A DNA stretch of 47,664 nt from Candidatus Omnitrophota bacterium (GCA_015234065.1 JADFWS010000001.1:1-47664), one strand, 5' to 3'; positions 1-16,333 are shown, counted from the first letter of the stretch. Translations and numbers: made by a program. The notes: generated by a model from the sequence alone, not told the origin.

Positions 1-1035
1 ATTTTGATGGGTTTTAGCAATCTGGAAAAGATCGTGGCTCAGATCACGGCAGATCGTATGATGCTGAAGATGCCAGTGGCACTGATCAGTAATGGTACGC
101 TCCCGACGCAAAAAGTGGTGACAGGGACGTTAGCGAATATTGTGGCCCGTGTCAAGGCGTCGGGCATGAAGGCGCCGGCGATCATTGTGATCGGTAAAGT
201 GGTTGCGTTAAGAGATCAACTGAATTGGTTTACACCACCGCTGTTATTGCAAGGCAAGCGCATTTTGGTCACGCGGCCCGAGCATCAGGCGAGCGAGCTC
301 GTGGGTATTTTGGAAGGACATGGCGCCAGGGTGACGAGCATTCCGCTCATCCGGATCGTTCCGTCGAAGAATACGGCGCAGATCAAGGCCCGGCTTTCAG
401 CGCTTGATCAATTTAACTGGCTTATTTTTACGAGTGTGAACGGGGTGGATCTTTTTCTGAAAGCCGTTGCAAAGCATAAGATTTCCATCGCAAGTTTGAA
501 GAATAAGAAATTCGCCGCGATCGGAAAAAAGACGGCCGAGCATTTGGAGCAGGCCGGGATCAAGGTGGATCTGGTGCCCAAAGATTTTGTGCAGGAAGCG
601 TTGGCCGCCACGATGATAAAGACGATCGCCAAAGAATCCAAGGGCGTTCTTCTGGCGCATTCCGCCGGAAGCCGGCCGGTCTTGGAACAGAAGCTCAGGG
701 CGGCGGGGTTAAAGATCGAGACACTCGATCTTTATTCAGCTGAGCCGATCAAGGAAAATCATGCGCGTGTGCATACGATGTTTGCGAAGCGGCAGGTAGA
801 TGCTGTAATGTTGACGAGCTCGTCGTGTGCGGAAAGTTTTTTAAGTGTTTTTAAAAAGGCACAGCTTAAGGCGCAGACAAAAGGTGTTGTGGTGGCGTCC
901 ATCGGCCCGATCACGTCCGATACGGCGCGGCGCGCAGGGTTGCCCGTGGCGGTTGAAGCCGATGTATACACGATCGAGGGCATTACGGCGGCATTGATCG
1001 AATATTATCAGGGACAGAAAAGAGTTCAGGCATGA
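1..1035 (+). CDS. cobA-hemD: CobA/HemD fusion, 5'-truncated by the window: C-terminal end of uroporphyrinogen-III C-methyltransferase fused to uroporphyrinogen-III synthase
   Basis: The frame is open from base 1. The first ~75 aa (GTLANIVARVKASGMKAPAIIVIGKVVALRDQLNWF) resemble the C-terminus of SUMT. The rest (GKRILVTRPEHQASEL, LIFTSVNGV, MLTSSSCAESF) is HemD-like. It sits in a tetrapyrrole gene cluster. Confidence 0.8.
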   Translation: MLMGFSNLEKIVAQITADRMMLKMPVALISNGTLPTQKVVTGTLANIVARVKASGMKAPAIIVIGKVVALRDQLNWFTPPLLLQGKRILVTRPEHQASELVGILEGHGARVTSIPLIRIVPSKNTAQIKARLSALDQFNWLIFTSVNGVDLFLKAVAKHKISIASLKNKKFAAIGKKTAEHLEQAGIKVDLVPKDFVQEALAATMIKTIAKESKGVLLAHSAGSRPVLEQKLRAAGLKIETLDLYSAEPIKENHARVHTMFAKRQVDAVMLTSSSCAESFLSVFKKAQLKAQTKGVVVASIGPITSDTARRAGLPVAVEADVYTIEGITAALIEYYQGQKRVQA

Positions 1036-2198
1036 TCAGCTTTACAGGGCTTTTAGGGGATATTTCATCCTACGGGGATAAGCTTCGTTACCGCAGGGAT
1101 CCGGATCCGCTGTTGCGGCGGCCGATCGCGGTATGGAATTGTTCGCGTCGCTGTAATCTTTCGTGTGTGCATTGTTATTCGGATTCCCGCGACACGACTT
1201 ATGCGGGTGAGCTTTCAACGGATGAGGCCAAGGCCATGATCCGGGATTTGAAGGAATTCAATGTGCCGGTGCTTTTGTTTTCAGGCGGTGAGCCGCTCAT
1301 GCGCCAGGATCTTTTTGAGCTCAATGCGTATGCGCGCGCACGGGGATTGCGCACGGTCATTTCAACCAATGGCACGCTGATCACGCCTGATATGGCACGG
1401 CGTATCAAGGACGAAGGTTTTGAGTATATCGGTATCAGCCTCGACGGGATCGGCAAGAATAATGACCGGTTTCGCGGCAAGATCGGCGCGTTTGATGATG
1501 CGCTGAATGGTATTCGTAACCTTGTGCATGTCGGGCAAAAGGTGGGTTTGCGTTTTACGATCACGAACCATAATTATCTGGATATTCCACCGCTGTTCAA
1601 ACTGGTTGAGGCGGAAGCTGTGAACCGGATCTGTTTTTATCATTTGGCTTACGCAGGCCGGGGCGCGGCAGAGGAACAGAATGACCTGCCGCATGATAAA
1701 ACACGGGCTGTGATCGATCAGATCTATGACTGGACGGTGTCGCTGTCCGAGCGGAAGATCGCGAAAGAAGTGCTGACCGTGGATAATCACGCGGATGGCG
1801 CGTATTTGTATTTGAAGCTGAAGAAGGCGGATCCTGTGAAAGCGGCCGAAGCGTTTCGTTTGCTCGAAGCGAATGGCGGCAATGCCTCGGGGATCGGGAT
1901 TTCGAATATTGATAATATAGGCAATGTGCATGCGGATCAGTTTTGGCAGAGTGTCACATTTGGCAATGTCCGTGAACGGAAATTCGGGGATATCTGGACA
2001 GATACGTCACATGAGCTGATGGGTAAGCTTAAAAACAGGGCGGCGTTCCTGAAAGGGCGTTGTCCGACGTGCAAATTCTTGAATATGTGTAACGGGAATT
2101 TACGCTTGCGCGCCGCGGTGGCGACCGGAGACGTGTGGGCTGATGATCCGGCGTGTTATCTGACGGATCAGGAAGTATTTGAGACGAAAATACCATGA
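1032..2198 (+). CDS. Radical SAM/SPASM enzyme, NirJ-like (AhbC/AhbD type, alternative heme biosynthesis)
   Basis: CX3CX2C motif (CNLSCVHCY) and a C-terminal Cys cluster CPTCKFLNMC followed 21 residues later by another Cys, resembling the auxiliary-cluster motif recalled for AhbD. ATGA overlap with the upstream gene. I cannot assign AhbC versus AhbD with certainty. Confidence 0.75.
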   Translation: MISFTGLLGDISSYGDKLRYRRDPDPLLRRPIAVWNCSRRCNLSCVHCYSDSRDTTYAGELSTDEAKAMIRDLKEFNVPVLLFSGGEPLMRQDLFELNAYARARGLRTVISTNGTLITPDMARRIKDEGFEYIGISLDGIGKNNDRFRGKIGAFDDALNGIRNLVHVGQKVGLRFTITNHNYLDIPPLFKLVEAEAVNRICFYHLAYAGRGAAEEQNDLPHDKTRAVIDQIYDWTVSLSERKIAKEVLTVDNHADGAYLYLKLKKADPVKAAEAFRLLEANGGNASGIGISNIDNIGNVHADQFWQSVTFGNVRERKFGDIWTDTSHELMGKLKNRAAFLKGRCPTCKFLNMCNGNLRLRAAVATGDVWADDPACYLTDQEVFETKIP

Positions 2199-3160
2199 AG
2201 AAAGCGTTAACACCACTTCTGAAAAAGAGCGGGTCAGGCTATAACCTCATCATGCCGTATTTTGTGGTAGAGGGGAAGAATGTTTCTCGGGCTATTGCCT
2301 CGATGCCCGGCGTGTATCAGTTATCCGTTGACCGGATGGTGACTGAAGTTGCCCGGGCCAAAGAGTTGGGCGTGCCGGGGGTGATCATTTTCGGGATCCC
2401 GAAGGCCAAGGACGCCGAAGCTACCGGGGCGTACGACGACCATGGCATTGTTCAGCGCGCGGTCCGTGCGGTGAAGGATAAGGTCAAAGGCATTTTAGTG
2501 ATCACGGATGTCTGCTTGTGTGAATATACCAGCCACGGCCATTGCGGGGTGGTGCATTGCTGTCAGGAGAATGGGGAAATGCCCAAGAAGTTCATTCGCT
2601 TGAAGGACACCGTTGCGCTGTTGGCTAAGACGGCGGTGTCGCATGTGAAGGCTGGCGCGGATATAGTCGCTCCGTCGGCCATGATGAAAGGCCAGGTCAA
2701 AGCGATCCGTCAAGAGCTCGATAAAGCCGGCTTTGGGCAGACCCCGATCATGGGGTATAGCGCCAAGTTTGCGTCGGCATTTTACGGGCCTTTTCGTGAT
2801 GCGGCTGAGTCGGCGCCCCGGTTTGGGGACCGCAGGTCGTATCAGCTGGATCCAAAGGTGTCGACCAAAGCGCTCTCAGAAGTGGCCGCAGATATTGCCG
2901 AGGGCGCGGATATTGTGATGGTCAAGCCGGCGCTGGCGTATCTGGATATTATCCGTCAGGTCAAGGACCGGTTTGATATGCCGCTGGCCGCGTATAATGT
3001 CAGCGCGGAATATTCCATGGTCAAGGCCGCGGCCGCCAAGGGCTGGATCGACGAGAAAAAGATCGTTCTTGAAAAATTGAACGCGATCAGGCGCGCCGGG
3101 GCTTCGATCATTATCAGCTACCATGCGTGTGACGTGATGCGTTGGAAGAGGGAAGTATAA
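2195..3160 (+). CDS. hemB: Porphobilinogen synthase (delta-aminolevulinate dehydratase), Zn-type
   Basis: Cys-rich metal site DVCLCEYTSHGHCG and Schiff-base lysine context IVMVKPALAY. Length 321 aa. Confidence 0.93.
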   Translation: MKKALTPLLKKSGSGYNLIMPYFVVEGKNVSRAIASMPGVYQLSVDRMVTEVARAKELGVPGVIIFGIPKAKDAEATGAYDDHGIVQRAVRAVKDKVKGILVITDVCLCEYTSHGHCGVVHCCQENGEMPKKFIRLKDTVALLAKTAVSHVKAGADIVAPSAMMKGQVKAIRQELDKAGFGQTPIMGYSAKFASAFYGPFRDAAESAPRFGDRRSYQLDPKVSTKALSEVAADIAEGADIVMVKPALAYLDIIRQVKDRFDMPLAAYNVSAEYSMVKAAAAKGWIDEKKIVLEKLNAIRRAGASIIISYHACDVMRWKREV

Positions 3161-4132
3161 ATGATCATTTCATGGAATATCACCAAAGAATGTCAGCTCA
3201 AGTGCCGCCATTGTTACCGTGATGCCGGAGCGAAACAAAAAGGTGAGTTAACGCCGGCCGAAGGCAAAGAGCTTATTGAGGAGATCGCTAAAGCCGGATT
3301 CAAGATATTAATTATCAGCGGTGGAGAGCCGCTCATGCGTCACGATGTGTATGACCTGATCGCGCATGCCAAGGCTCAAGGGTTGCGCCCGGTTTTGGGG
3401 ACGAACGGGCTTATGATCACGCCCGAGGTTGTCCGCAAATTGAAAGCCGCAGGCCTGGCCCGCGCCGGGATCAGCCTCGACAGTATTGATGCGCGTATCC
3501 ATGATGATTTCCGTCAGGAAGCCGGCGCCTGGAAAGGCACGATCGCGGCCATGAAGGTGTGCCGTGAAGAAGGCCTGGATTTCCAGATCCACACGACCGT
3601 GACGACGTATAATTACAAAGATGTGGAAAAAATAACGGATCTGGCGGTTGAGCTCGGCGCCAAGGCGCATCATATTTTCTTTCTTGTTCCCACAGGGCGG
3701 GGCAAGGATCTTGAGGCACTGATCCCGTCGAAAGAATACCAGGCGTTGCTTAAAAAGATCATGAAGAAGCAAGGCGAAGTTGCGATCGAGTTAAAGCCGG
3801 TGTGTGCGCCGCAATTTGTGCCGCTGGCCAAAGAGATGGGCCTGGAAACGCGTTTTCAGCGCGGCTGTCTGGCGGGCGTCAGTTATTGTTGCATCCTGCC
3901 GAATGGCGACGTTCACCCGTGCCCGTATTTTCCGAAACGTGTGGCCAACGTGCGGGATCAGAAATTCAGCGATATGTGGAAGAACGCGCCGCTGTTCAAG
4001 GAATTGCGCGATGCCAATTATACCGGTCAGTGTGGCGCGTGTGAGCATAAGTCCAGTTGTGCCGGTTGTCGCGCCCGGGCGTACGCCGAGTCGGGTGATT
4101 ACATGGATTTTGATCCGGAGTGTATTTTTTAG
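3161..4132 (+). CDS. Radical SAM/SPASM enzyme, NirJ-like (AhbC/AhbD type)
   Basis: CQLKCRHCY radical SAM motif and C-terminal SPASM-like GQCGACEHKSSCAGCRARAY. It sits next to the siroheme decarboxylase genes. Confidence 0.75.
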   Translation: MIISWNITKECQLKCRHCYRDAGAKQKGELTPAEGKELIEEIAKAGFKILIISGGEPLMRHDVYDLIAHAKAQGLRPVLGTNGLMITPEVVRKLKAAGLARAGISLDSIDARIHDDFRQEAGAWKGTIAAMKVCREEGLDFQIHTTVTTYNYKDVEKITDLAVELGAKAHHIFFLVPTGRGKDLEALIPSKEYQALLKKIMKKQGEVAIELKPVCAPQFVPLAKEMGLETRFQRGCLAGVSYCCILPNGDVHPCPYFPKRVANVRDQKFSDMWKNAPLFKELRDANYTGQCGACEHKSSCAGCRARAYAESGDYMDFDPECIF

Positions 4133-4582
4133 ATGATCACGTCAAAAGATAAAATCTTGCTTAAAAAGCTTCAGCCTGAATTTCCGTTGGCTTCGAGGCC
4201 TTTTGCGGTTTTGGCAGAACAGGCCGGGCTCTCTGAAAAAGACATGATCGCCGCGTTCAAGCGCTTGCAGAAAGAAAAGATCCTGCGGTATATCGCGCCC
4301 ATGTTTGATATGCGCAAGCTGAGTATCGTGTCGAGCCTTATAGCGATGCGCGTTCCGCTGAATAAACAGAAGAAAGCGGTCCAGGTCATTAATGCGTACC
4401 CTAATGTGAGCCATAATTATCTTCGGGCCGGTGAGTATAATGTCTGGTTCACAGTGAGCGCTGCGTCGGAGCGAAAACTGAAGAGGATCCTTTCCGATAT
4501 ACGAAAGAAGACAGGTATTGACGCCATGCTGGACCTTAAAACACGCAAGGTGTTTAAAAGCCGGGCGGTGTTTGACCTATGA
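4133..4582 (+). CDS. Siroheme decarboxylase subunit (AsnC/Lrp-like, NirD/L/G/H family; AhbA/AhbB)
   Basis: 149 aa with an N-terminal HTH-like region (ILLKKLQPEFPLASRPFAVLAEQAGLSEKDMIAAFKRL). Paired with a paralog and flanked by NirJ-like genes. Confidence 0.75.
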   Translation: MITSKDKILLKKLQPEFPLASRPFAVLAEQAGLSEKDMIAAFKRLQKEKILRYIAPMFDMRKLSIVSSLIAMRVPLNKQKKAVQVINAYPNVSHNYLRAGEYNVWFTVSAASERKLKRILSDIRKKTGIDAMLDLKTRKVFKSRAVFDL

Positions 4583-5052
4583 AGAGCGCTTTCCGGAAAA
4601 CCATATTTGCGTTAACTGAACCATTGGCGCTCGTACCTGCTCCGTATGCGGCCGTGGCGAAACGTTTAGGTATGAGTGAGCAAAAGCTTATATCCCGCAT
4701 TGCTGAATATCAGTCTGAGGGGATCATTCGTCGGATGGGGATCGTGTACGGGCATTTCAAGATGGGGTATAGCGCCAACGCCCTCGTGGTATGGCGTGTG
4801 GATGAAGCGCAACTCGAAGATGCGGGCAAGATCTTTTCTGCGTTTACGGCGGTCACACATTGTTATGCGCGTCAGGCGTATCCGGAGTGGCCGTATAATC
4901 TGTATACCATGGTCCATGCCAAAAGCAAAAAGCAGTGTCAAATGATTATTCGGGAGATGTCGCAAAAATCTCGTGTTGGAGAGTATAAAGTTTTATCGAC
5001 ATTGAAGGAATTTAAAAAGATAAAGAGCGATCTTCGGGAGATATTAACATGA
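4579..5052 (+). CDS. Siroheme decarboxylase subunit (AsnC/Lrp-like; AhbA/AhbB partner)
   Basis: 157-aa paralog of the preceding ORF (PYAAVAKRLGMSEQKLISRIAEYQSEGIIRRMG). 4-nt overlaps on both sides. Confidence 0.75.
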   Translation: MKSAFRKTIFALTEPLALVPAPYAAVAKRLGMSEQKLISRIAEYQSEGIIRRMGIVYGHFKMGYSANALVVWRVDEAQLEDAGKIFSAFTAVTHCYARQAYPEWPYNLYTMVHAKSKKQCQMIIREMSQKSRVGEYKVLSTLKEFKKIKSDLREILT

Positions 5053-6308
5053 AACGGTCGGCATCTAAAAAAGCCTATCAAGAGGCGTTAAAGTATTTCC
5101 CCGGTGGTGTGAATAGCCCGGTACGCGCCTTTGGCTCTGTGGGAGGAAGCCCGCTGTTCATTAAGAAGGGCGCAGGATCGAAAATTTACGATGTTGATGG
5201 GAATGTGTATATTGACCTGGTCATGAGCTGGGGTGCTTTGATGCTTGGGCATGCCGCGCCCGAAGTTGTCCGGGCAGTCGAGGATGCCGTTAAGCTGGGG
5301 TCGAGTTTTGGTGCGCCGACGTGTGCCGAGACAGAGCTGGCGAAAATGATCCGGGACGCGGTCCCGTCGATCCAAAAGATGCGTTTTGTCAGTTCGGGCA
5401 CAGAAGCCACGATGAGCGCGATCCGCTTAAGCCGCGGGTTCACGGGGCGGGACAAGATCATTAAATTTGACGGTTGTTATCACGGGCATGGCGACAGCTT
5501 GCTTGTGAAGGCCGGGTCAGGGGCGGCAACACAGGGCATTCCGGGAAGCAAGGGCGTGAGCGCATCGTTGAGTCGGGACACGATCGTGTGTCCCTACAAT
5601 GATATTGCGTATTTTCGTAAGGTTGTAGCCAAACAGGGTAAAGATATTGCCTGCGTTATCGTTGAGCCCGTAGCCGCAAATATGGGTGTTGTCCTGCCGG
5701 GTATCGGTTTTCTGGAAGAGATCCGCGCGTTAACGAAGAAGCATGGGATCGTGCTTGTTTTCGACGAGGTTATCACAGGGTTTCGCATTCACTTTGGCGG
5801 CGTGCAGACGATCTTGAATGTTAAGCCGGATTTGACCTGTTTGGGAAAGATCATTGGTGGCGGCCTGCCGATCGGCGCGTATGGCGGCAGAAAAGATATC
5901 ATGGATCATGTGGCGCCTCTGGGCGGCGTGTATCAGGCGGGTACGCTGTCCGGGAACCCGGTCGCGGTCGCGGCGGGTATCGCGAATTTGAAGGCGTTAA
6001 AAAAGAAAGATTATGCGGCGCTGAATGACAAGACCGCGATTCTCTGTGACGGGCTGGAAGCGGCGTTCATCAAGGCCGGTGTGCCGGTCACGGTCAACCG
6101 TGCCGGGTCTTTGTTTACGGTGTTCTTTACCAAAGGGCCAGTCGATGACTTTAAGGACGCCAAAACGTCGGATACAAAACGATATGCGAAGTATTTCTGG
6201 TCCATGCTGGATCAAAGGATCAATATCGCGCCATCGCAATTTGAAGCGCAATTCCTATCTTTCAGCCATACGGATAAAGATATTCAGGCCATTTTGAACG
6301 CACTATGA
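5049..6308 (+). CDS. hemL: Glutamate-1-semialdehyde 2,1-aminomutase
   Basis: Class III aminotransferase. N-terminal YFPGGVNSPVRAF, PLP-lysine context CLGKIIGGGLPIGAYGG, and GTLSGNP. Confidence 0.95.
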   Translation: MKRSASKKAYQEALKYFPGGVNSPVRAFGSVGGSPLFIKKGAGSKIYDVDGNVYIDLVMSWGALMLGHAAPEVVRAVEDAVKLGSSFGAPTCAETELAKMIRDAVPSIQKMRFVSSGTEATMSAIRLSRGFTGRDKIIKFDGCYHGHGDSLLVKAGSGAATQGIPGSKGVSASLSRDTIVCPYNDIAYFRKVVAKQGKDIACVIVEPVAANMGVVLPGIGFLEEIRALTKKHGIVLVFDEVITGFRIHFGGVQTILNVKPDLTCLGKIIGGGLPIGAYGGRKDIMDHVAPLGGVYQAGTLSGNPVAVAAGIANLKALKKKDYAALNDKTAILCDGLEAAFIKAGVPVTVNRAGSLFTVFFTKGPVDDFKDAKTSDTKRYAKYFWSMLDQRINIAPSQFEAQFLSFSHTDKDIQAILNAL

Positions 6309-6703
6309 AGACCCATGATGAGGATCTGGCGTTTTATGCGCCGTCTGCAACGGATGTTGTTTTGGCCGTTATCATCCTCGGTTGTTCCCTGTTTTTTATC
6401 GTGTCTGCGTTCTCTCACCGTTATGTGCCGGCATCACCCGGTATTCTGATCTATCATGAACAGGCGCTGTTAAGCAAGATCAGCCTGTCCAAAGACGGCG
6501 TTGTGCCGATCCTGAATGGAAAAATGCAGATCGAGGTTAAAGGCGGGCGGGTGCGGGTACTCGAATCGGATTGCCCTCAGCATGTGTGCATGCGTACCGG
6601 CTGGATACAGTACGTCGGTCAGACGATCGTCTGTGTGCCGAATCATATTCTGATTGAGATCAAATCAACAGCGCCGCAGATCCTGGATGCGGTGGCCTAT
6701 TAA
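6305..6703 (+). CDS. NusG domain II-containing membrane-anchored protein (PF07009-like)
   Basis: One N-terminal TM helix, then IEVKGGRVRVLESDCPQHVCMRTGWIQYVGQTIVCVPNHILIEI, the characteristic NusG_II pattern. ATGA overlap with the hemL stop. Confidence 0.8.
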   Translation: MKTHDEDLAFYAPSATDVVLAVIILGCSLFFIVSAFSHRYVPASPGILIYHEQALLSKISLSKDGVVPILNGKMQIEVKGGRVRVLESDCPQHVCMRTGWIQYVGQTIVCVPNHILIEIKSTAPQILDAVAY

Positions 6704-6711
6704 GGTTTAGA

Positions 6712-7929
6712 ATGACAAAAATTCCTGCGACATTGAATATCCATAAGACGGCGCTCCTGGTTGCGATCGCGTGCGTCGTACAGATCGCAGAGTCGCTGAT
6801 CCCGCACCCTGTGCCCGGGCTTCGCCTGGGGCTGGCGAATGTGGTGACGTTGATCGCACTGGTGACCATGGGGTTTGGCGCGGCCATGGAGATCACGCTG
6901 TTGCGTACGATCTTGAGTGCGTTCATGATGGGGACCTTTATGTCGCCTACATTTATTTTGAGCTTTTCCGCCGGAGTGATGAGTACGGCCGTGATGGGAT
7001 GTTTATTTTGGGTGCGATCTTTTCCGCTGCCGTTTCGTTTGGGGATCGTGGGGATCAGCATGGCCGGAGCGCTGACGCATAATGTGGTCCAGATATTCCT
7101 GGCGTATTGGCTTTTGGTGAAACACCCCGGGATCTTTTTATTCCTGCCGTGGCTGGCTATCGGCTCCGTCGTGATGGGGTGGGTGATCGGTATCGTCGCC
7201 GGGCAGGTTTGCCTTGATCTCAAGAACGGGTTGCCCGTAGAGAAAGAAACACTCACGGCGGAACATGCTTCGCCTGAATTCGGCCGGTATGTTGTTGGCC
7301 ATTCTTTTCTGGACAGGCTTTCGGCAGAAATGAAGATCCTGACGCTGATCATTCTTTCCTTGTTTGTGATCATGGTGAGCGGCCTGGCCGTATACGGGGT
7401 ATTATTCGCGCTTCTTGTGTTTCTTGTTCTGGCGGCACGTATTCCGCTTGTTTTCCTCTTGATACAGGCCAGAAGATATAGCCTGATGATTGCGATCGCG
7501 TTCTTGTTTCCGGTATTGTTCAGTTCAGGCACGCAGGTGCTGTTTCAAAATGCGTTGATCCGATTTACGGCGGAAGGGCTGACCACAGGCGCAGTTTTTG
7601 CGTTGCGCATTGTGTTTCTGATCTTTTTAAGCGCGTTGTTAGCCCGGACGACATCGCCTACGGATCTTGGGGCCGGTTTGGGGCGGTTGCTTAAGCCGTT
7701 GGAGGTGTTCGGGATCTCCGGCGAGAGGACGGCCATGATTTTTGCCGAGGCCTGGATGGCGATTCCTTTTTTCTGGGATATTTCAAAGAATATCATACGA
7801 AGCCTTGATTTTAAGAATGTCAGGACTCCGGCGGCATTGATGCCTCTTTTGAGTATGTTCATGACCCGTTTTTATCTGGCGGCGGATAGCCAGAAAACGG
7901 CTGCAGGGGAGGTTTCATGCGCACCATGA
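6712..7929 (+). CDS. Fusion protein: N-terminal Gx transporter / Hpre_diP_synt_I-like domain plus C-terminal EcfT (CbiQ)-like transmembrane domain
   Basis: N-terminal half: QIAESLIPHPVPGLRLGLANVVTLIAL, typical of the Gx family. C-terminal half: GHSFLDRLSAEMKIL ... TAEGLTTGAVFALRIVFLIFLSALLARTTSPTDLGAGLGRLLKPLEVFGISGERTAMIFAEAWMAIPFF, typical of EcfT/CbiQ. One continuous 405-aa ORF. Confidence 0.7.
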   Translation: MTKIPATLNIHKTALLVAIACVVQIAESLIPHPVPGLRLGLANVVTLIALVTMGFGAAMEITLLRTILSAFMMGTFMSPTFILSFSAGVMSTAVMGCLFWVRSFPLPFRLGIVGISMAGALTHNVVQIFLAYWLLVKHPGIFLFLPWLAIGSVVMGWVIGIVAGQVCLDLKNGLPVEKETLTAEHASPEFGRYVVGHSFLDRLSAEMKILTLIILSLFVIMVSGLAVYGVLFALLVFLVLAARIPLVFLLIQARRYSLMIAIAFLFPVLFSSGTQVLFQNALIRFTAEGLTTGAVFALRIVFLIFLSALLARTTSPTDLGAGLGRLLKPLEVFGISGERTAMIFAEAWMAIPFFWDISKNIIRSLDFKNVRTPAALMPLLSMFMTRFYLAADSQKTAAGEVSCAP

Positions 7930-8930
7930 CCATGGCCCAATGGTTGAAAACTGTTTTATTGTGGATCGTTGTTACGATCATCGCGGTTTGTGTGGCGCGG
8001 GCGTTGAGCGGCCGTGAGACGCGTGTGCAGAAAGAAACGCGTTTCATGATGGACACCTATGTCACCGTATCTGCGGCGGGCCCTGAGAAGGTGGCGGCGC
8101 CCGCTGTCAAGGCGGCGTTGGATCGCATGCAGGAGGTTGCGATCAAATTTAACGGGTTGGATGCCAGAAGCCCTATTTATGCGTTTAATCATGACGGCAC
8201 ACCGATCAAGGATAAGGAGATCCTGGGGCTTATTCAGACCGGGCTTGACATGAGTGCAAAGACAGATGGGGCTTTTGACATGACGGTTGAGGCGTTGGCC
8301 CAGATATGGGGCTTTCATACGGATCATCCGCATCTTCCGGCTGATGCGGATATTCAACGCGCGTTGAAAAGTGTGGGGTACGCGCATCTTTCGTTGAAAG
8401 ACGGCCAGTTGGAAAAAGATGCTCACGATGTCATGATCGACCTGGGCGGCATTGCCAAAGGGTATTCGATCGTTGAAGCGGTCAAGGTTTTAAAGGCGCA
8501 TGGGATCGTGTCGGCGTTGATCGATGCCGGCGGGGATGTGTATGTGATCGGGCAGAATGCGTCACGGCCGTGGAATATCGGGATCCAACAGCCGCGCGGA
8601 GACGGGATCGTGGGGTATGTGGCGGTCACAGATACGGCGGTCATGGGCTCCGGGGATTATCAGCGGTTTTTTATCAAGGATGGTAAACGCTATCATCATA
8701 TTTTCAATCCCAGGACCGGATATCCGACGGAAGGTGTCGTGTCTGTGACCGTGATCTATCCTGACCCTGTTGTGGGCCAGGTGCTCGGCAAGATCCCGTT
8801 TATCATGGGGCCGGAAAAAGGGCTGGCGTTTCTCGAGAAAATACCCGGAATGGATGTGATCGTAATACTGTCTTCGGGCGAAAAGATCGTGTCCAAGGGG
8901 ATACGACATCCGCTAAAAACATTAAACTAA
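7917..8930 (+). CDS. apbE: FAD:protein FMN transferase ApbE (membrane-anchored or secreted)
   Basis: DLGGIAKGY, GSGDYQRFF and YHHIFNPRTGYP motifs plus an N-terminal hydrophobic anchor. An alternative start at 7926 gives an ATGA overlap with the upstream stop. Confidence 0.9.
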   Translation: MRTMTMAQWLKTVLLWIVVTIIAVCVARALSGRETRVQKETRFMMDTYVTVSAAGPEKVAAPAVKAALDRMQEVAIKFNGLDARSPIYAFNHDGTPIKDKEILGLIQTGLDMSAKTDGAFDMTVEALAQIWGFHTDHPHLPADADIQRALKSVGYAHLSLKDGQLEKDAHDVMIDLGGIAKGYSIVEAVKVLKAHGIVSALIDAGGDVYVIGQNASRPWNIGIQQPRGDGIVGYVAVTDTAVMGSGDYQRFFIKDGKRYHHIFNPRTGYPTEGVVSVTVIYPDPVVGQVLGKIPFIMGPEKGLAFLEKIPGMDVIVILSSGEKIVSKGIRHPLKTLN

Positions 8931-8937
8931 GTCATGC

Positions 8938-8973
8938 AGGGGATCCTTCGGCCTGCGGGCCTCAGGATGACGT
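8938..8973. repeat. REP-like imperfect hairpin element, copy 1
   Basis: ggATCCTtcGGCCtgcgGGCCtcAGGATgac lies immediately 3' of apbE. It belongs to the same family as the copies at 29847, 45220-45348 and 45373. Confidence 0.8.
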
Positions 8974-9044
8974 GCGTAAAAAATGAATTTTGTATACATT
9001 ATATAATATCTTAAGGTAGAATTAATGCTCAAAAGGGAGACGTA

Positions 9045-10385
9045 ATGCAGGCCATCAGAATTAAAAAAGGTCGCACTATTCCGCTGAAGGGCGGGGCTCG
9101 TTTGGAGCTTAAGGTTTTATCTCGTCCATCCGAAATTTTGTTTCCATTCTTTGAATTTCCGCCGCATCAGTTTCGTCTTGTCATTAAAGAAGGCGATCGT
9201 ATTCAGACAGGCGCTCCTATCGCGGAAGATCGCGACGGGAAGGGCATTGTTTTGGTGTCCCCGGTGACGGGTGTTATTAAAAGTTTGAATCGCGGGCCCA
9301 AGCGCGCGTTGTTATCAGTGACCATTCAGGTTGACGGCGATCAAAGCGCGGTTGCTCATGGCGCCGTATCAGGGGACTCTCTTTCCCGCGAAGCAGTGAT
9401 CGACCGGTTGCTCAAGGGCGGTGTTTGGCCTTTTCTGCGTCAGCGTCCGTTCATGAAGATCGCGGATCCTAAAGCCGCCCCCAAGTCTGTTTTTATCCAT
9501 GCCATGCAGTCAGACCCTTTGGCCCCGGATATCGGGTTCATTCTCGAAGGGAAAGAAAAGGATTTCCAGGCCGGGCTTGATATTTTGAGGCGCCTTACCA
9601 CAGGGAAAACGTATCTTTGTTTTGACGCGGCAACATTATCCAAGGCGCTTTTAGGCGCGAAGAATGTGGAATGCGCGGGGTTTTCCGGGCCGCATCCGGC
9701 GGGTAATGTGGGCACACATATTCATGCATTGGATCCTATTGGAAAAAATGAAGTGGTGTGGTTTATCGAAGCGCAGGATGTCCTGCGGGTGGCGCGCCTT
9801 TTCACCGATGGGGTTTTTGACCCTAAAAAGGTTATTGCGGTGACAGGCGAGGCGGCACAAGGCCGTGCGTATGTTCAAACGGTCTTGGGCGCGCCGGTCG
9901 CGCATCTTCTTGGCGAAGCTCAAAAAAATGACGCCCGTTATATTTCTGGCAGTGTCTTAAGCGGGACAGAGGTGGGTTACGCAGGCACTATCGGCTGGTA
10001 TCATGCGCAGTTGACCGTGATCCCGGCGGGTGGCGCGAGAAAACTTTTTGGCTGGATCGACCCGGGGTTTAATGCGTTTTCGTTTACCCGCACGGTGGCA
10101 AGTTCATTTCTTCCGAAGAAAGAAGTTTCTTTGGATACGGACATGAATGGCGGGCATCGCGCGATCGTTTTGAGCGATATTTACGACGACTTGAATGCGA
10201 TTGATATCATGCCTGTGTTTTTGATTCGGGCGATCTATGCGAATGAAGTGGAAGAGATGATCCGCCTCGGGATCTTTGAATGCGCGGCCGAAGATTTTAC
10301 ACTCTGCAATTTTGCCTGCCCGTCCAAGGTTGACGTGAGCGGGATCATTCAGCGTGGGCTTGACCTCATGGAGAAAGAGGCATGA
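9045..10385 (+). CDS. nqrA: Na+-translocating NADH:quinone oxidoreductase subunit A
   Basis: 446 aa, first gene of a six-gene nqr-ordered operon. The N-terminus (IRIKKGRTIPLKGGA) is NqrA-like. Confidence 0.9.
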   Translation: MQAIRIKKGRTIPLKGGARLELKVLSRPSEILFPFFEFPPHQFRLVIKEGDRIQTGAPIAEDRDGKGIVLVSPVTGVIKSLNRGPKRALLSVTIQVDGDQSAVAHGAVSGDSLSREAVIDRLLKGGVWPFLRQRPFMKIADPKAAPKSVFIHAMQSDPLAPDIGFILEGKEKDFQAGLDILRRLTTGKTYLCFDAATLSKALLGAKNVECAGFSGPHPAGNVGTHIHALDPIGKNEVVWFIEAQDVLRVARLFTDGVFDPKKVIAVTGEAAQGRAYVQTVLGAPVAHLLGEAQKNDARYISGSVLSGTEVGYAGTIGWYHAQLTVIPAGGARKLFGWIDPGFNAFSFTRTVASSFLPKKEVSLDTDMNGGHRAIVLSDIYDDLNAIDIMPVFLIRAIYANEVEEMIRLGIFECAAEDFTLCNFACPSKVDVSGIIQRGLDLMEKEA

Positions 10386-11545
10386 TGAACGCATTACGCA
10401 CATTCTCGGATAATTTAGGCCGGCATTTTCAAAAGGGTAAGCCTCTGGAAAAGCTGTATCCTTTATATGAAGCGACCGACAGCTTTTTGTTCACGCCCGG
10501 AACGCGGGCAACAAAGGCCCCGTTTATTCACGACAAGGCGGATCTGAAGCGTGTCATGGTGCTGGTGGTGCTGGCCGTGATCCCGGCGGCATTCTTCGGG
10601 ATCTTTAATGCCGGGTATCAGGCAGAGCTGGCGCTTGGCGTTGCGCCGCAATGGACCGATGCGCTGCTGCGCGGCCTCATGGCGATCCTGCCGATCATTT
10701 TGGTCAGTTATACGGTCGGCGGTTTTTGGGAAGTTCTTTTTGCCTGTACTCGCAAGCATGAGATCAATGAAGGTTTTTTTGTGACAGGGATCCTTTTTGC
10801 GCTGACCTTGCCGCCGCATATTCCGCTGTGGCAGGTGGCGATCGGCATATCGTTCGGTGTCGTGGTGGGCAAAGAAATATTTGGCGGCACGGGGATGAAT
10901 ATTGTGAATCCGGCGCTTGCCGCACGCGCGTTTCTGTTTTTTGCATATCCGGGCCAGATGTCCGGGGATAAGGCCTGGCTGGCTGTTGATGGCGTTTCCA
11001 AAGCAACACCGCTGGCCGTGCTTGCGGCAGCTCCGGCCGGAACTCCGGCGACGACGGCACTGACGCAGGCAGGGTATACGTGGCATCAGCTTTTCATTGG
11101 ATTTATTCCGGGTTCGATCGGGGAAACCTCGAAGCTGGCATGTTTGTTGGGTTTGGCGCTTTTATTGATCACCGGGGTCGCGAGCTGGAGGATCATTGCG
11201 GGTTGCGTGGTCGGGCTGTTGACAACAAGCTGGCTGGTTGTTCTTTTGCATGGGCCGCACAGTGCTATTCAAGCCACCTTGCCGCCGCACTGGCATCTGG
11301 TGCTTGGCGGTTTTGCGTTCGGCGCGATCTTTATGGCGACGGACCCGGTGTCGGCCTCGGCCACACAGATTGGCCGCTGGATCTACGGGATCCTGATCGG
11401 CGTGTTTGTGGTCCTGATCCGCGTGTTCAATCCGGCATATCCTGAAGCGGTCATGCTTTCGATTTTGGTGATGAACATTTTTGCGCCGCTCATCGATCAT
11501 ATTATTGTGGAGCAGCATATCCGAAGGAGGGCGTCCCGTGGTTAA
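10382..11545 (+). CDS. nqrB: Na+-NQR subunit B
   Basis: Polytopic membrane protein with GGFWEVLFA, GKEIFGGTGMNIVNPALAARAFLFFAYP and a candidate flavinylation site, VSKATPL. Confidence 0.93.
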   Translation: MMNALRTFSDNLGRHFQKGKPLEKLYPLYEATDSFLFTPGTRATKAPFIHDKADLKRVMVLVVLAVIPAAFFGIFNAGYQAELALGVAPQWTDALLRGLMAILPIILVSYTVGGFWEVLFACTRKHEINEGFFVTGILFALTLPPHIPLWQVAIGISFGVVVGKEIFGGTGMNIVNPALAARAFLFFAYPGQMSGDKAWLAVDGVSKATPLAVLAAAPAGTPATTALTQAGYTWHQLFIGFIPGSIGETSKLACLLGLALLLITGVASWRIIAGCVVGLLTTSWLVVLLHGPHSAIQATLPPHWHLVLGGFAFGAIFMATDPVSASATQIGRWIYGILIGVFVVLIRVFNPAYPEAVMLSILVMNIFAPLIDHIIVEQHIRRRASRG

Positions 11546-12251
11546 TAAAGAGAGCCGGCTTTATCCGTTTATTTTTGCGTTTATTATTTGTTCGATCGCA
11601 AGCTTTATGCTGGCGTCTTTGTCGCTCAAGCTTAAGGCCCGTCAGGAAATGAATGTGACTCTGGACGTGAAGCGGCATATTTTCGATGTGTTGAAATTGA
11701 CGCCGCCTTTGCCGAAAGACGTTCTTCCAGAATTGGCGCTTAAGATCTTTAATGAGAAGATCGAACAGGTCGTGCTGGATGCGTCCGGCAATATTGTGCC
11801 GGGTAAAAAGCACGAGGATATCAAAGAGGGCGAGGCGTTGTATCCGCTCTTTATTTATCGTGAAGGCGGTAAGGTGCAGGGGTATTGTTTTCCGATCAAG
11901 GGCAAGGGCTTGTGGTCCATGCTGTATGGATATCTGGCCATCCAGCCCGACGGAAAGACGGTGCGCGGGATTTCATTCTACAAGCAGGGAGAAACACCTG
12001 GGCTTGGCAGTGAAGTGGAATCGCTCGGGTTTCAGCAGAATTTTGAAGGCAAGAAGATATGGGATGATGCGCTATCCCAGGTTGAGCCGGTGGTGGTTGC
12101 TAAAGGCAAAGTATCTGATCGTATCCCTAAAGAAAAGTGGCCGTATTATGTGGACGGGATCAGCGGCGCAACAATGACAGGCAAGGGTGTGACCGCGCTC
12201 CTCGACCATTGGATCAGGGTGTATGAACCTTTTTTTCAGAAACAGCATTAA
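11538..12251 (+). CDS. nqrC: Na+-NQR subunit C
   Basis: FMN attachment motif DGISGATMTGKGV. I place the start at the GTG at 11538, preceded by aaggaggg. The ORF-track start at 11481 would overlap nqrB by 65 nt. Confidence 0.88.
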   Translation: MVNKESRLYPFIFAFIICSIASFMLASLSLKLKARQEMNVTLDVKRHIFDVLKLTPPLPKDVLPELALKIFNEKIEQVVLDASGNIVPGKKHEDIKEGEALYPLFIYREGGKVQGYCFPIKGKGLWSMLYGYLAIQPDGKTVRGISFYKQGETPGLGSEVESLGFQQNFEGKKIWDDALSQVEPVVVAKGKVSDRIPKEKWPYYVDGISGATMTGKGVTALLDHWIRVYEPFFQKQH

Positions 12252-12269
12252 GCATAACGAGGTTTGACC

Positions 12270-12899
12270 ATGTCCCTCTTCGGTAAAAAAGAACGACTGA
12301 TCGTGATCGACGGGTTGTGGAATAAAAACCCGATCTCTTTTCTGGTGATGGGGATCTGTTCGGCGCTGGCCGTGACTGTTAAAATGCAGACGGCGCTGAT
12401 CATGGCGCTGGGTACGACATTCGTACTGTCCTTTGGCTGCATGGCTGTTGCGCTGATTCGCAATTATATTCCGTCCAATATCCGGATCATTGTTCAGATC
12501 CTGGTCGTGTCGGTTCTCGTTATTATGGTGGATCAGGTATTGCGGGCGTTCTTTTTTGATTTGAGCAAGCAGATCAGTGTGTTTATCGGGTTGATCATTA
12601 CGAATACCCTGGTGCTGGGGCGTACCGAAGGGTATGCCATGAACAATCCGCCGTGGCCGTCGTTCCTCGACGGGCTTGGGAACGCGTTAGGCTACAGTTC
12701 GTTTTTGCTCATGATTTCGGCATTGCGCGAGATATTTGGTAGCGGAACATTTTTCGGGTTCCCGGTCGTGCCACACTTTTTCTATCAGGCTGGTTATATT
12801 AACAATAGCATCATGGTTTTGGCGCCCGGAGCGTTTTTTCTTCTGGGGGCGCTTGTCTGTATTCACCGTATGATTACAGGGCATCGCGAAGAGCATTAA
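12270..12899 (+). CDS. nqrD: Na+-NQR subunit D
   Basis: RnfE/NqrD-type six-TM protein (NPISFLVMGICSALAVT). ATG at 12270 follows acgagg. The TTG at 12264 is an alternative start. Confidence 0.9.
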   Translation: MSLFGKKERLIVIDGLWNKNPISFLVMGICSALAVTVKMQTALIMALGTTFVLSFGCMAVALIRNYIPSNIRIIVQILVVSVLVIMVDQVLRAFFFDLSKQISVFIGLIITNTLVLGRTEGYAMNNPPWPSFLDGLGNALGYSSFLLMISALREIFGSGTFFGFPVVPHFFYQAGYINNSIMVLAPGAFFLLGALVCIHRMITGHREEH

Positions 12900-12912
12900 G
12901 ACGGGAGTTTGT

Positions 12913-13521
12913 ATGAATCATTATATAACGCTGGCCATTAAAACGATCTTTACGGATAACATGATCCTGGCGTATTTTCTCGGGATGTGTTCGTTTTTGG
13001 CCTGTTCCAAACAGATCAAGACCGCAACCGGTCTGGCTATGGCGACGACGTTCATTTCAACCATGACGGTTCCGATGAATTGGCTGCTTAAGGCGTATGT
13101 TCTTAAAAAGGGCGCCCTGGCGTGGGCCGGGCTTCCGGGGCTTGACTTAAGTTATTTGAGTTTTATTCTTTTTATCGCGACGATCGCGGCGTTGAATCAA
13201 ATTACGGAAATGATCGTAGATCGTTTTGCGCCCGCTTTATATGCAACGGTCGGTATTTTTCTTCCGCTTATTACAGCGAATTGCGCGGTTTTGGGTGCAA
13301 CGTTCTTTATGGATCAGCGTGATTATACCTTCGGAGAATCGCTCGTGTTCGGTTTTAGTTCCGGAGCCGGATGGGGGCTTGCGATCATTACGCTGGCCGC
13401 GTTACGCAAAAAGCTCTGGTATTCAAATCCGCCGGCGCCGCTTAAGGGGCTTGGGATTACCATGATGACAACCGGATTCATGGCCATGGCGTTCATGGCA
13501 TTCGCAGGGATCGCTTTCTAA
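12913..13521 (+). CDS. nqrE: Na+-NQR subunit E
   Basis: RnfA/NqrE-type protein (NMILAYFLGMCSFLA, PLITANCAVLG). Position in the operon. Confidence 0.9.
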   Translation: MNHYITLAIKTIFTDNMILAYFLGMCSFLACSKQIKTATGLAMATTFISTMTVPMNWLLKAYVLKKGALAWAGLPGLDLSYLSFILFIATIAALNQITEMIVDRFAPALYATVGIFLPLITANCAVLGATFFMDQRDYTFGESLVFGFSSGAGWGLAIITLAALRKKLWYSNPPAPLKGLGITMMTTGFMAMAFMAFAGIAF

Positions 13522-13537
13522 CAAAGGAACTTGTTCA

Positions 13538-14770
13538 ATGGTTTTAGGATCATTCATTCTTTTTAGCGTTGTGTTTTTTACGCTCACTGTACTTCTTTTG
13601 GTCGGGATATTGTCACTGGCGGAATTCTTCCTCGTGAAGAAGGGGAAATGCTCGCTCAAGATCAACGGCCAGTGCATGACGTTTCAGATCAATACGGGCA
13701 AGAATTTGCTGACAGTGCTTTCTGAAAACAAGATTTTCCTGCCTTCGGCATGTGGCGGACGCGGCGAGTGCGGGGTGTGCACGTGCAAGGTCCTGCAGGG
13801 TGGCGGCGAGATCCTTCCGACCGAAACAGCTCAGATCCCGTGGCGCTTGCAGAAAGAGCATGTTCGTTTAGCGTGTCAGGTCAAGGTCCGTGAAGATCTG
13901 GATATTGAGATCCCTGCCGAAGCGTTCAATGTGAAGAAATTCGAGTGTGAGGTTATCTCGAATCAGAATGTGGCGACATTTATTAAAGAATTGGTATTGC
14001 GCCTGCCTGAGGGGCAGCCATTCGATTTTCACGCCGGCGGGTATATTCAGATCGATATTCCGCCGTATAAGAAGAACTTCCGGGATTTCTTGATCCAGGA
14101 CGTGTTTCGTTTTGACTGGGATAAATTCAAGCTGTGGGACCTGAAAGCCGAGAATGATGAGCCGATCTTCAGGGCGTACTCCATGGCCAATTATCCCGGT
14201 GAAAAGGGAGTGGTTAAATTGAATGTGCGTATTGCGACCCCGCCGCCCAAAGACATGTCGCTTCCTCCGGGCAAGGCGTCGTCGTATATCTTTTCGCTCA
14301 AGCCCGGTGACAAGGTCATGGTGAGCGGGCCGTATGGCGAGTTTTTCATCCGGGAAACGAACCGTGAAATGCTGTATATCGGGGGAGGCGCCGGCATGGC
14401 GCCGTTGCGCAGTCATTTGTTTGAATTATTCAAGAACCGCCGCACAACGCGCAAGGTGAGCTTCTGGTATGGCGCCCGTTCACGCCGGGAAATGTTCTAT
14501 GATGAAGATTTCAAGGCGTTGGCCGCGGAGTTCCCGAATTTCAGTTATCATGTGGCGCTCTCGGCGCCGTTGCCCGAAGATAAATGGGAAGGGCCGACAG
14601 GCTTTATCCATCAGATCGTTCTGGAACGTTATCTAAAAAATCATCCTGACCCTGAGGGTTGTGAATATTACCTCTGCGGCCCGGGCCCCATGATCGATGC
14701 GGTCAAGAAAATGCTTGATGCGCTCGGTGTCCCGCCTGAAATGATCGCATACGATAACTTCGGAGAGTAG
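13538..14770 (+). CDS. nqrF: Na+-NQR subunit F (2Fe-2S ferredoxin plus FAD/NADH-binding domains)
   Basis: N-terminal TM helix, 2Fe-2S motif CGGRGECGVCTC, FAD motif RAYSMAN, NAD domain GGGAGMAPLRS. Confidence 0.95.
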   Translation: MVLGSFILFSVVFFTLTVLLLVGILSLAEFFLVKKGKCSLKINGQCMTFQINTGKNLLTVLSENKIFLPSACGGRGECGVCTCKVLQGGGEILPTETAQIPWRLQKEHVRLACQVKVREDLDIEIPAEAFNVKKFECEVISNQNVATFIKELVLRLPEGQPFDFHAGGYIQIDIPPYKKNFRDFLIQDVFRFDWDKFKLWDLKAENDEPIFRAYSMANYPGEKGVVKLNVRIATPPPKDMSLPPGKASSYIFSLKPGDKVMVSGPYGEFFIRETNREMLYIGGGAGMAPLRSHLFELFKNRRTTRKVSFWYGARSRREMFYDEDFKALAAEFPNFSYHVALSAPLPEDKWEGPTGFIHQIVLERYLKNHPDPEGCEYYLCGPGPMIDAVKKMLDALGVPPEMIAYDNFGE

Positions 14771-14787
14771 AAAAGCTGCAAGGCTTT

Positions 14788-14955
14788 TTAATACAGGATC
14801 TTGTTTTCACAAGGAGGAGTTTTGCTGTCGCAGGAGCAGCCTTTTTCAGGCTTCATGCCGCAGCGGTGCTGAAACGGCTTTTTGGTCAGAAAATATCCGA
14901 TCCCAAGGCCGAGGATGCACAGCAGTAAAATGATGAGCGTTGCTACATAGATCAT
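14788..14955 (-). CDS. nqrM: Small single-TM, Cys-rich protein, NqrM-like (Na+-NQR maturation factor, DUF539-like)
   Basis: Hand translation of the minus strand gives MIYVATLIILLLCILGLGIGYFLTKKPFQHRCGMKPEKGCSCDSKTPPCENKILY (55 aa, ATG to TAA). It has one TM helix followed by four Cys. It is below the 60-aa ORF-track cutoff and lies between nqrF and nuoA, convergent with nqrF. Confidence 0.6.
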   Translation of the reverse strand: MIYVATLIILLLCILGLGIGYFLTKKPFQHRCGMKPEKGCSCDSKTPPCENKILY

Positions 14956-15010
14956 AGTTTTATTATAGTACGATTGTGTCAGGCGCCTACAAAAATTGTG
15001 AAAGGTCAGG

Positions 15011-15367
15011 ATGCTTCCGGATTATATTCACATTACATTCTTTTGGCTCTTGGGCGTCATTTTTGTGGGCGCTGCGTTTGCGGTCTCATGGTTCATACGG
15101 CCTAAGGCCCCGTCTGCTGTCAAATGTGCGCCCTATGAATGCGGCGAGATCGTTCAGGGGGATTCCCGCGTACAATTCAATATCCGCTTTTATCTCTTCG
15201 CGTTGATCTTCGTTATCTTTGATGTCGAAATATTATTTACCATTCCCTGGGCTGTTGATTTTCAACAAATGGGGATGACGGCGTATTTGGAAATGGTTGT
15301 GTTCATGCTTATTCTTGCCGTCGGATTGGCCTATGCCTGGAAGAAGGGGGCGCTCGAATGGCAATAA
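15011..15367 (+). CDS. nuoA: NADH-quinone oxidoreductase (complex I-like) subunit A
   Basis: 118 aa, three TM helices, YECGE motif. First gene of the nuo-ordered operon. Confidence 0.9.
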
Positions 15368-15876
15368 ACGAATCGATCCCGGGAGCTGCGTATATTGAAA
15401 AGATGCCCGGGGGCCAGCTTATTTTGGGTAAGAGTGAAGAGCTTTTTGCCTGGGCCAAGAGTTCATCGTTATGGCCGCTGACCTTTGGCCTGGCGTGTTG
15501 TGCGATCGAAATGATGGCGGCTGGTTCGTCGGATTATGATATTGACCGATTTGGATCTGGTGTATTCCGTGCCAGCCCGCGTCAATGCGATGTCATGATC
15601 CTTTCAGGCACAATATGTATCAAAATGGGCGACAGTATTAAAAGGCTATATGCGCAAATGCCGGAACCCAAGTACGTTATTGCCATGGGCAATTGTGCGA
15701 TCAGCGGCGGTATTTTTTATCATGACACATATTCCGTGGTCAAGGGCGCGGATGCGCTCGGGATCCCCGTTGATGTGTATGTTGCCGGATGCCCGCCCCG
15801 GCCGGAGAACCTGCTGCATGGCCTCATGAAGCTCCAGGATAAGATCAATACTAAAAAAGACAAGGCCGCGGTCTAA
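15358..15876 (+). CDS. nuoB: Complex I subunit B (N2 cluster subunit)
   Basis: [15 protein letters not shown] and GCPPRPE motifs. Confidence 0.95.
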
Positions 15877-16329
15877 ATGGATCTTTTAACGGTTGTCCAG
15901 GCGGTTCAAACAATGTTTCCCGACGCGGCGGCAGAGGCTGTGGCCGGGGCATTGGTCATTCGCAAAGAGGCGGCTTTTGCGGTGTTGGATCAGCTGAAGA
16001 ACGGGCCCTCGCGTTTTATCAGTTTGCAGTGTTTGACCGCGGTTGACCGTAAAGAGGCGCTCGACGTGGTTTATCATCTGTATAGTTTTGATGTGCGCTT
16101 TTTGTTGACCGTGAAGGTTGTGCTTTCATCCGAAGAGCCGTCCATTGATTCGGTGGCTTCTTTATGGGACGCGGCGAACTGGTTTGAGCGGGAAGTCTAT
16201 GACCTGTTCGGGATCAAATTCCTGGGGCATCCGGACCTGCGCCGGATCCTGAATCCCGATGATTGGGCCGGACATCCTTTGCGCAAAAGTTTTGCTTCTT
16301 CGGACATTATTCAAAAGCCGTTAAAGTGA
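15877..16329 (+). CDS. nuoC: Complex I subunit C (30 kDa family, short form)
   Basis: [26 protein letters not shown] signature. Confidence 0.9.
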
Positions 16330-16333
16330 CGTT

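Follow-up and report, generated by a model that had tools for sequence, protein, structure and literature searches.

The window analysed here, a stretch of 47,664 nucleotides from Candidatus Omnitrophota bacterium (GCA_015234065.1 JADFWS010000001.1:1-47664), contains three adjacent genes whose probable role in flavin export is our subject. The first is eetA-like (6305–6703; 132 amino acids); the second (6712–7929) encodes a 405-amino-acid fusion of an EetB-like energy-coupling factor (ECF) S-component domain (PF07456) to a domain resembling the ECF scaffold protein EcfT (PF02361); and the third, apbE (7917–8930; 337 amino acids), encodes an FAD:protein FMN transferase (FAD, flavin adenine dinucleotide; FMN, flavin mononucleotide). 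All three lie on the plus strand, as do the flanking genes, hemL upstream (5049–6308; glutamate-1-semialdehyde aminomutase; Pfam Aminotran_3, E=4e-66) and nqrA–F downstream (9045–14770), which encode a Na+-NQR-type NADH:quinone oxidoreductase. The TGA of hemL and the ATG of eetA share bases as ATGA at 6305–6308, as the first-pass annotation of this DNA had described, and its coordinates for the open reading frames (ORFs) likewise proved exact on re-reading the window. The apbE start, at 7917 or 7926, overlaps the fusion stop codon at 7927–7929. The eetA, fusion and apbE genes are translationally coupled to hemL, and because start and stop codons overlap we treat eetA, fusion and apbE as one operon. 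A promoter and terminator scan over 1–15100 returned counts no better than chance, so the operon boundaries are those set by the gene overlaps; the spacing from apbE to nqrA is 115 nt.

The fused protein and its two partners

The N-terminal half of the fusion (residues 1–172; 6712–7227) matches Hpre_diP_synt_I (PF07456) at residues 16–164 (E=3.3e-37; 128.2 bits against a cut-off of 30) over profile positions 1–145 of 147, and NCBI names the identical 405-residue protein 'Gx transporter family protein'. An AlphaFold2 model built on a 33-sequence alignment (predicted local distance difference test (pLDDT) 82.5; predicted template-modelling score (pTM) 0.81) has six helices within residues 6–172, with low confidence limited to the termini and the linker between the halves (pLDDT < 50 at residues 182–190). 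Comparison of this half with the PDB by Foldseek returned the Staphylococcus aureus riboflavin importer RibU (3P5N_A; probability 1.0, template-modelling (TM) score 0.72), 5EDL and TmRibU (5KC4). As modelled, the N-terminal half has the six-helix fold of an ECF S-component. Its first helix carries the motif A14xxxA18, with A14 invariant and position 18 either Ala or Ser in the family alignment; AxxxA in helix 1 is the motif by which S-components dock on EcfT (PMC11109136). The S-domain is the best-conserved part of the fusion, holding about 50 of its 57 invariant residues, and is followed by a variable linker (about residues 173–197; 7228–7302) that is predicted to be disordered and whose alignment columns are unconserved and gapped, differing in both sequence and length among homologues (alignment A1).

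The C-terminal half (residues 198–405; 7303–7929) had been proposed to be an EcfT/CbiQ-type T-component, and the comparisons bear this out. It matches CbiQ (PF02361) at residues 198–366 (E=5.1e-15; 56.1 bits against a cut-off of 25); a family sequence profile searched against the PDB found Lactobacillus brevis EcfT (4HUQ_T, E=1e-30), 4HZU_T and 5D3M_D; and Foldseek matched the modelled half to the EcfT chains 9KYM_C, 7NNU_D and 4HUQ_T (probability 1.0, TM-score 0.55–0.63). The PF02361 match covers only profile positions 3–164 of 216, and against the NCBIfam equivalog TIGR02454 (ECF_T_CbiQ) the T-half scores below cut-off (30 against 111.8 bits). It keeps the first four transmembrane helices (TM1–4), coupling helices 1 and 2 (CH1 and CH2) and a short CH3-like helix. 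Unfused canonical EcfT proteins (255–290 amino acids) run about 40–47 residues past the point at which the fusion ends, and the other fused proteins stop within about 20 residues of that same point.

In characterized systems, the Arg motifs of EcfT insert into the ATPases EcfA and EcfA' (PMC4245157, PMC4820897) and are counted among the typifying features of EcfT (PMC11109136); mutating both causes the complex to dissociate (PMC4820897, and PMC4245157 citing Neubauer 2009). We aligned 167 fused T-parts with 51 canonical EcfT sequences and L. brevis EcfT using MAFFT. In the canonical sequences CH2 closes with A-R-G and CH3 with A-R-G/C, and a C-terminal membrane helix follows; Arg occupies each of the two motifs in 50 of 51. 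Nothing in any of the 167 fused sequences aligned to the second motif or the last membrane helix. Aligning the same T-domains to a hidden Markov model (HMM) of the 51 canonical sequences with hmmalign gave a similar picture, the fused domains occupying only states from about 8 to 178 of 265 and the motif-2 Arg state being a gap in 167/167. At the motif-1 Arg state there was a gap in 133 of 167 sequences and an Arg in 23. The fusion in the window has no A-R-G; it has R363 at the predicted tip of CH2 and R371 in the next loop, in a region that is among the least conserved of the T-domain. Judged from these alignments, motif 1 appears degenerate or ambiguous in the fused proteins, not cleanly lost. 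The side of the protein that would receive the S-component is kept, namely CH1, CH2 and part of CH3 in the T-domain and AxxxA in helix 1 of the S-domain. Three apparently unfused truncated T-components (P0146, P0150 and P0143) begin inside the last S-domain helix ('MGW.TG...') and were set aside as fragments of fused genes.

The product of the upstream gene matches NusG_II (DUF1312; PF07009, E=1.4e-22; 80.3 bits against a cut-off of 29.6) and has one N-terminal hydrophobic membrane helix at residues 18–36 ahead of its beta domain, in agreement with its earlier description as a membrane-anchored NusG-domain-II protein. Data Set S1 of PMC9973259 gives NusG_II proteins the label EetA, and PDB relatives are Lin0431 (2KPP, 3LD7) and 4ESN. 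Three cysteines, C90, C95 and C110 (DCPxxxC...IVCVPN), are invariant across 15 aligned homologues and could form a metal or redox site; Listeria innocua Lin0431 has neither of the first two. Summed over 36 homologues, Lys and Arg residues total 105 on the N-terminal side of the membrane helix and 73 on its C-terminal side, a charge bias that weakly suggests an N-in/C-out orientation.

The downstream gene product covers profile positions 1–265 of 266 of PF02424 (E=8e-78; 262 bits, above the curated cut-off), confirming it as an ApbE-type flavin transferase. It has an N-terminal hydrophobic anchor, and its PDB relatives include TM1553 (1VRM, E=7e-50) and 7ESA (E=7e-42), deposited as 'FAD:protein FMN transferase'; it falls below the cut-off of the NCBIfam equivalog for E. 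coli-type ApbE (116 against 498). The nqr products, its presumed clients here, match by Pfam NQRA domains, NQR2_RnfD_RnfE, FMN_bind, two Rnf-Nqr domains and Fer2/FAD_binding_6/NAD_binding_1. Candidate flavinylation sites had been put forward in both NqrB and NqrC. Measured against the consensus D-x-x-[S/T]-G-A-[S/T] (PMC12052999), the candidate site in NqrC, DGISGAT (12153–12173), is an exact match that keeps the canonical SGAT, whereas the NqrB motif DGVSKAT (10988–11008) has Lys at the consensus Gly position. Across the window and related loci NqrB varies at that residue, with K, R, T or Y in DGVSKAT, DGVTRAT, DAVTTAT and DALTYAT (window 10988–11008; L010:11564; L007:4157; L012:1543).

The fused family and its gene neighbourhood

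A protein search with the fusion returned 223 matches, of which the best 120 clusters, at 46–66% identity and 383–450 amino acids, all have both Pfam domains. An exhaustive phmmer search with the T-half alone returned 1,053 matches, and among the best 150 clusters at 50% identity were 57 fused representatives, some with identity to the query as low as 26%. For synteny we scanned one genome per GTDB species, yielding 50 loci; the full fusion is present as a single ORF in 43 of them, mostly from Omnitrophota and Desulfobacterales, with single metagenome-assembled genomes (MAGs) labelled Poribacteria, Elusimicrobia and Planctomycetales. In four gammaproteobacterial loci the EetB-like gene is instead unfused and encodes 179 amino acids. 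With at least 120 clusters carrying both domains in one chain and 43 species-level genomes carrying a single ORF, a frameshift or assembly artefact was rejected. The reading of the 405-residue ORF as a genuine Gx-type and EcfT-type fusion stands on these clusters and single ORFs and on the model's pTM; across Omnitrophota and Desulfobacterales such fusions make up a large, conserved family.

The gene order is conserved across the 43 fused loci, counting as assessable those with enough flanking sequence. Immediately before the fusion comes eetA in every locus that can be assessed on that side (41 of 41), and 34 of the 38 loci assessable on the other side have apbE within about 6 kb; the linkage to ApbE that a genome survey had been proposed to test is strong. 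In 27 loci an FMN_bind protein follows ApbE. The minimal cassette of EetA, fusion and ApbE is found in the window and in L003, L006 and L010. The order hemL–eetA–fusion–apbE recurs in L003 and L010, the latter mirroring the window through nqrA–F. Even divergent members (26–28% identity) retain NusG_II–fusion–ApbE or NusG_II–fusion–FMN_bind, and one member adjoins Ndh2-like and polyprenyl synthase genes. The general partner of the fusion is ApbE together with flavinylated proteins, with Nqr the presumed client only in the sub-lineage of the window.

The earlier remark that no EcfA-type ATPase gene occurs in the window was upheld. Within the 47.6 kb no ORF has both a Walker A motif and an LSGGQ signature, and scanning the remaining window genes against Pfam gave no ABC_tran match. 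Nor did we find an ATP-binding cassette (ABC) ATPase in 741 kb of the 50 related loci or in five further Pfam-annotated contexts of the fusion, making about 48 fused contexts in all.

Proposed flavin delivery to ApbE and its alternatives

The route by which FAD reaches extracytoplasmic ApbE was called 'obscure' in a 2025 review (PMC12052999), and the ECF-type exporter of Listeria monocytogenes is the only one dissected so far. There, EetB (PF07456) folds as an S-component and captures FAD in pull-downs, and the flavinylation of PplA by FmnB, an ApbE homologue, depends on it; FmnA, an ECF-T subunit, is likewise required for FAD to reach FmnB (Rivera-Lugo et al., mBio 2023, PMC9973259). The exporter proposed in that study is EetB–FmnA–EcfA–EcfA', and natural EetB::ECF-T fusion proteins are cited as support for it; directionality is strict, RibU importing and EetB exporting. 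Because FmnA substitutes for EcfT in import (PMC9973259), we take it as a canonical EcfT. Across genomes, eetB colocalizes with eetA in 3,328, with apbE in 2,169 and with ECF-T in 291 (PMC9973259).

The window encodes the same families, NusG_II corresponding to EetA, PF07456 to EetB and CbiQ/EcfT to FmnA. Both loci lie beside an ApbE-type transferase and flavinylated clients, and share the putative role of bringing cytosolic FAD to extracytosolic ApbE. In contrast to Listeria, S and T form one polypeptide in the window, the T part ends after about two-thirds of EcfT, no ATPase gene is nearby at the fused loci examined, and the hosts are diderms (Omnitrophota, and relatives from Desulfobacterales), where the Listeria system belongs to a Firmicute. 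The client also differs, being Nqr here, whereas the eetB-colocalized systems listed in PMC9973259 are Rnf, extracellular electron transfer (EET), MsrQ-like and NapH-like. Similarly, the fusion shares with the group II ECF importers RibU/FolT–EcfT–EcfA–EcfA' (4HUQ, 4HZU, 5D3M and 7NNU) the S-fold with AxxxA in helix 1 and the EcfT-like TM1–4 and coupling helices that form the S-docking platform; unlike them, it is presumed to export, joins S and T covalently, lacks the second ATPase-docking tip and transmembrane helix 5 (TMH5), has a degenerate first motif and has no linked EcfA/A' genes.

We consider it probable that the three genes form a flavin export-and-transfer module homologous to Listeria EetA/EetB/FmnA–FmnB. 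By analogy, the published Listeria model also supports the first-pass suggestion of a dedicated flavin exporter or presentation device serving ApbE and Nqr. In such a module, cytosolic FAD would bind the EetB-like S-domain of the 405-residue protein, which, held on its flexible linker of ~25 residues, would topple against the T-derived platform and expose the FAD to the periplasm; the tethered EcfT-like domain would act as the hydrophobic coupling-helix platform on which the S-domain docks. Membrane-anchored, extracytoplasmic ApbE would then receive the FAD and move its FMN moiety onto the Thr of the motifs in NqrC (DGISGAT) and NqrB (DGVSKAT), encoded directly downstream, with EetA as a conserved accessory protein. 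FAD is the likely substrate by analogy with Listeria EetB, export the likely direction from Listeria genetics and the linkage to ApbE, and Nqr the presumed client from its adjacency.

Several observations weigh against this assignment. Substrate and direction are carried over by analogy from a Firmicute homologue and not from any fused member, and deleting eetA in Listeria gave no phenotype (PMC9973259). Four of the 38 assessable loci have no ApbE gene in the downstream interval, and at L052 there is none within 10 kb, the fusion being placed among menaquinone and haem genes. Only about 8 of 44 loci have Nqr or Rnf/Nqr-hybrid genes within 10 kb of the fusion, and at the window's own NqrB the Lys departs from the flavinylation consensus.

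How transport would be powered divides the possible readings further. ATPase independence is possible because the second docking motif is absent, the first is degenerate and the use of FAD at ApbE is irreversible; the truncation together with the lack of a nearby ATPase points to ATPase-independent FAD delivery, or at least to altered coupling. That the fused form works without EcfA/A', as a facilitator pulled by irreversible FAD consumption at ApbE, seems to us to have a little less than an even chance. More tentatively still, the fusion might be a self-contained, ATPase-independent flavin exporter, perhaps together with EetA, an ECF derivative that has kept the toppling S-domain and its platform and dropped the ABC motor, with flux driven by irreversible consumption at ApbE. 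Solitary S-components, among them some BioY proteins and BtuM, offer a precedent for transport by the S-fold without an ATPase (PMC11109136), although those are importers with no T-domain at all and the fusion keeps a T-derived scaffold. A functional analogue from another fold is Shewanella Bfe, a MATE-family protein that reportedly exports FAD to supply the periplasm of a Gram-negative bacterium. Bfe has an unrelated fold and energy coupling and no genetic link to apbE.

Against ATPase independence stands a conventional ATP-driven ECF exporter, in which the fused S–T protein would recruit EcfA/A' encoded elsewhere in the genome and export FAD to ApbE in the same way; we think this possible but on balance unlikely. 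In group II ECF systems the ATPase genes normally lie at another locus, and the ECF modules are typically unlinked from the S-component genes. In Listeria, export requires EcfA/EcfA', the ecfA/ecfA' double mutant losing PplA flavinylation (PMC9973259). The fused T-domain does retain CH1, CH2 and part of CH3, and MAFFT, in disagreement with the HMM alignment, sets Lys (66%) or Arg (19%) under the motif-1 Arg of the fused sequences; because of this basic residue near the CH2 tip (K/R in 85%) and of R363 and R371 in the window protein, one degenerate ATPase-docking site may survive. Set against these points are the second Ala-Arg-Gly motif and C-terminal helix, missing in 167/167 fused proteins, a first motif that is unconserved and lies in the poorly conserved CH2-tip region, and the lack of any ABC ATPase in the roughly 48 fused contexts, compared with ECF-A colocalized in 796 of 4,214 eetB genomes (PMC9973259).

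Two readings that dispense with export are harder to reconcile with the data. The fusion could be a RibU-like importer for the salvage of riboflavin, FMN or FAD, its adjacency to ApbE then reflecting general flavin homeostasis. The best structural match of the S-half is indeed RibU, nearly all characterized ECF systems import, and some ApbE proteins hydrolyse FAD in the periplasm (PMC12052999). We nevertheless judge import improbable: the S-half belongs to the EetB family PF07456 and not to that of RibU, Listeria genetics (PMC9973259) assigns import to RibU and export to EetB, and conserved operon linkage with ApbE and FMN_bind substrates fits supply to ApbE. Least probable of all, and very much so, is that the protein transports nothing. 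It would then be a membrane-bound scaffold or chaperone that helps ApbE or Nqr to assemble, or it would take part in the metabolism of prenyl compounds or quinones, as one might expect from the legacy name 'heptaprenyl diphosphate synthase component I'. Several homologues are named 'heptaprenyl diphosphate synthase' by the Joint Genome Institute (JGI), UbiA and polyprenyl synthase genes neighbour the fusion in several loci, and a loss of ATPase coupling would also be compatible with a loss of transport. The fold, however, is that of an ECF S-component joined to an EcfT domain and not of a prenyl synthase, and conservation is concentrated in the S-domain. Light et al. (2018) are said to have described prenyl genes, DmkA and DmkB, in the Listeria EET locus too, and these do not make EetB an enzyme.

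The view that this architecture had not been characterized was overstated. The three families and the functional model are already described, EetB::ECF-T fusions are mentioned in print and colocalization with eetA and apbE is reported (PMC9973259). What appears to be new is that the T-domain of the fused proteins is consistently reduced to two-thirds of an EcfT and has no second ATPase-coupling motif; we found no description of this in PMC9973259, which says nothing of truncation, or in the literature returned by a full-text search for EetB. Likewise apparently new, and not found in those same sources, are the absence of ATPase genes at fused loci, the dominance of the family in Omnitrophota and Desulfobacterales and the presence of Nqr beside the fusion in the window lineage.

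The locus extends the module, in its fused form and beside Nqr, to an uncultured diderm phylum. A T-domain that has lost at least half of its ATPase-docking apparatus is a natural experiment on ECF transport, and a single-chain S–T protein can reveal if the ABC motor is required for export at all and what fixes the direction of transport. Should ATPase-independent delivery by the fusion hold true, it would be the first ECF-derived facilitator and would offer diderm phyla, Omnitrophota and Desulfobacterota among them, a general route of FAD to periplasmic ApbE. For annotation, the evidence favours 'putative FAD exporter' over the present names 'Gx transporter' or 'heptaprenyl diphosphate synthase'.

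Related cassettes and the wider window

The majority form of the cassette is larger than that of the window, comprising EetA, the fusion, a protein of ~437 amino acids that joins a coiled coil to a region resembling a beta-barrel porin, ApbE, an FMN_bind protein carrying 'GVSGAT', and a small membrane protein (L009:9556-14711; also L001, L004, L005, L007, L008, L011, L013 and others). Genes for a UbiA prenyltransferase and a polyprenyl synthase precede it in several loci. It resembles a diderm version of the Listeria locus for flavin-based EET, with a candidate outer-membrane component. Upstream of the larger cassette at L009:913-6289, and also in L005, L007, L012, L023 and L027, lies a six-gene Rnf/Nqr-mixed complex with an RnfC-like subunit (RnfC_N, Complex1_51K and 4Fe-4S domains), NqrB/C/D/E-like subunits and an NqrF-like Fer2/FAD/NAD subunit.

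In gammaproteobacterial MAGs (L044:8409-10522; L046; L047), ApbE, EetA and the unfused 179-residue EetB-like gene are followed by a TonB-like gene, with no T-component or ATPase gene near the EetB-like gene in these three loci. This is possibly another case of EetB without an ECF module.

The upstream part of the window is devoted to haem synthesis. A siroheme-dependent (Ahb-type) cluster at 4–6308 lies directly upstream of the flavin module, to which it is translationally coupled, and contains hemD, genes for two Ahb-like radical-SAM/SPASM proteins, hemB, two NirDL/AhbAB-like genes and hemL. At L052:12386-21254 these haem genes again border the fusion. Since a haem cluster adjoins the fusion both in the window and in L052, genes for cofactor supply appear to be grouped with respiratory complexes.

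Downstream, nqrB–F are followed by an 11-subunit nuo operon and then by tricarboxylic acid (TCA)-cycle, transhydrogenase and menaquinone genes. The nuo operon begins right after nqr (15011–24311) and encodes NuoA, B, C, D, H, I, J, (K), L, M and N; because it has no space for the NADH-oxidizing NuoE/F/G module, we read it as encoding an 11-subunit complex-I-like enzyme. Among the menaquinone genes, an AMP-binding (MenE-like) ORF of 183 amino acids at 42613–43164, adjoining MenC-like and UbiA genes, covers the first ~94 of 384 profile positions and may be a truncated or frameshifted gene.

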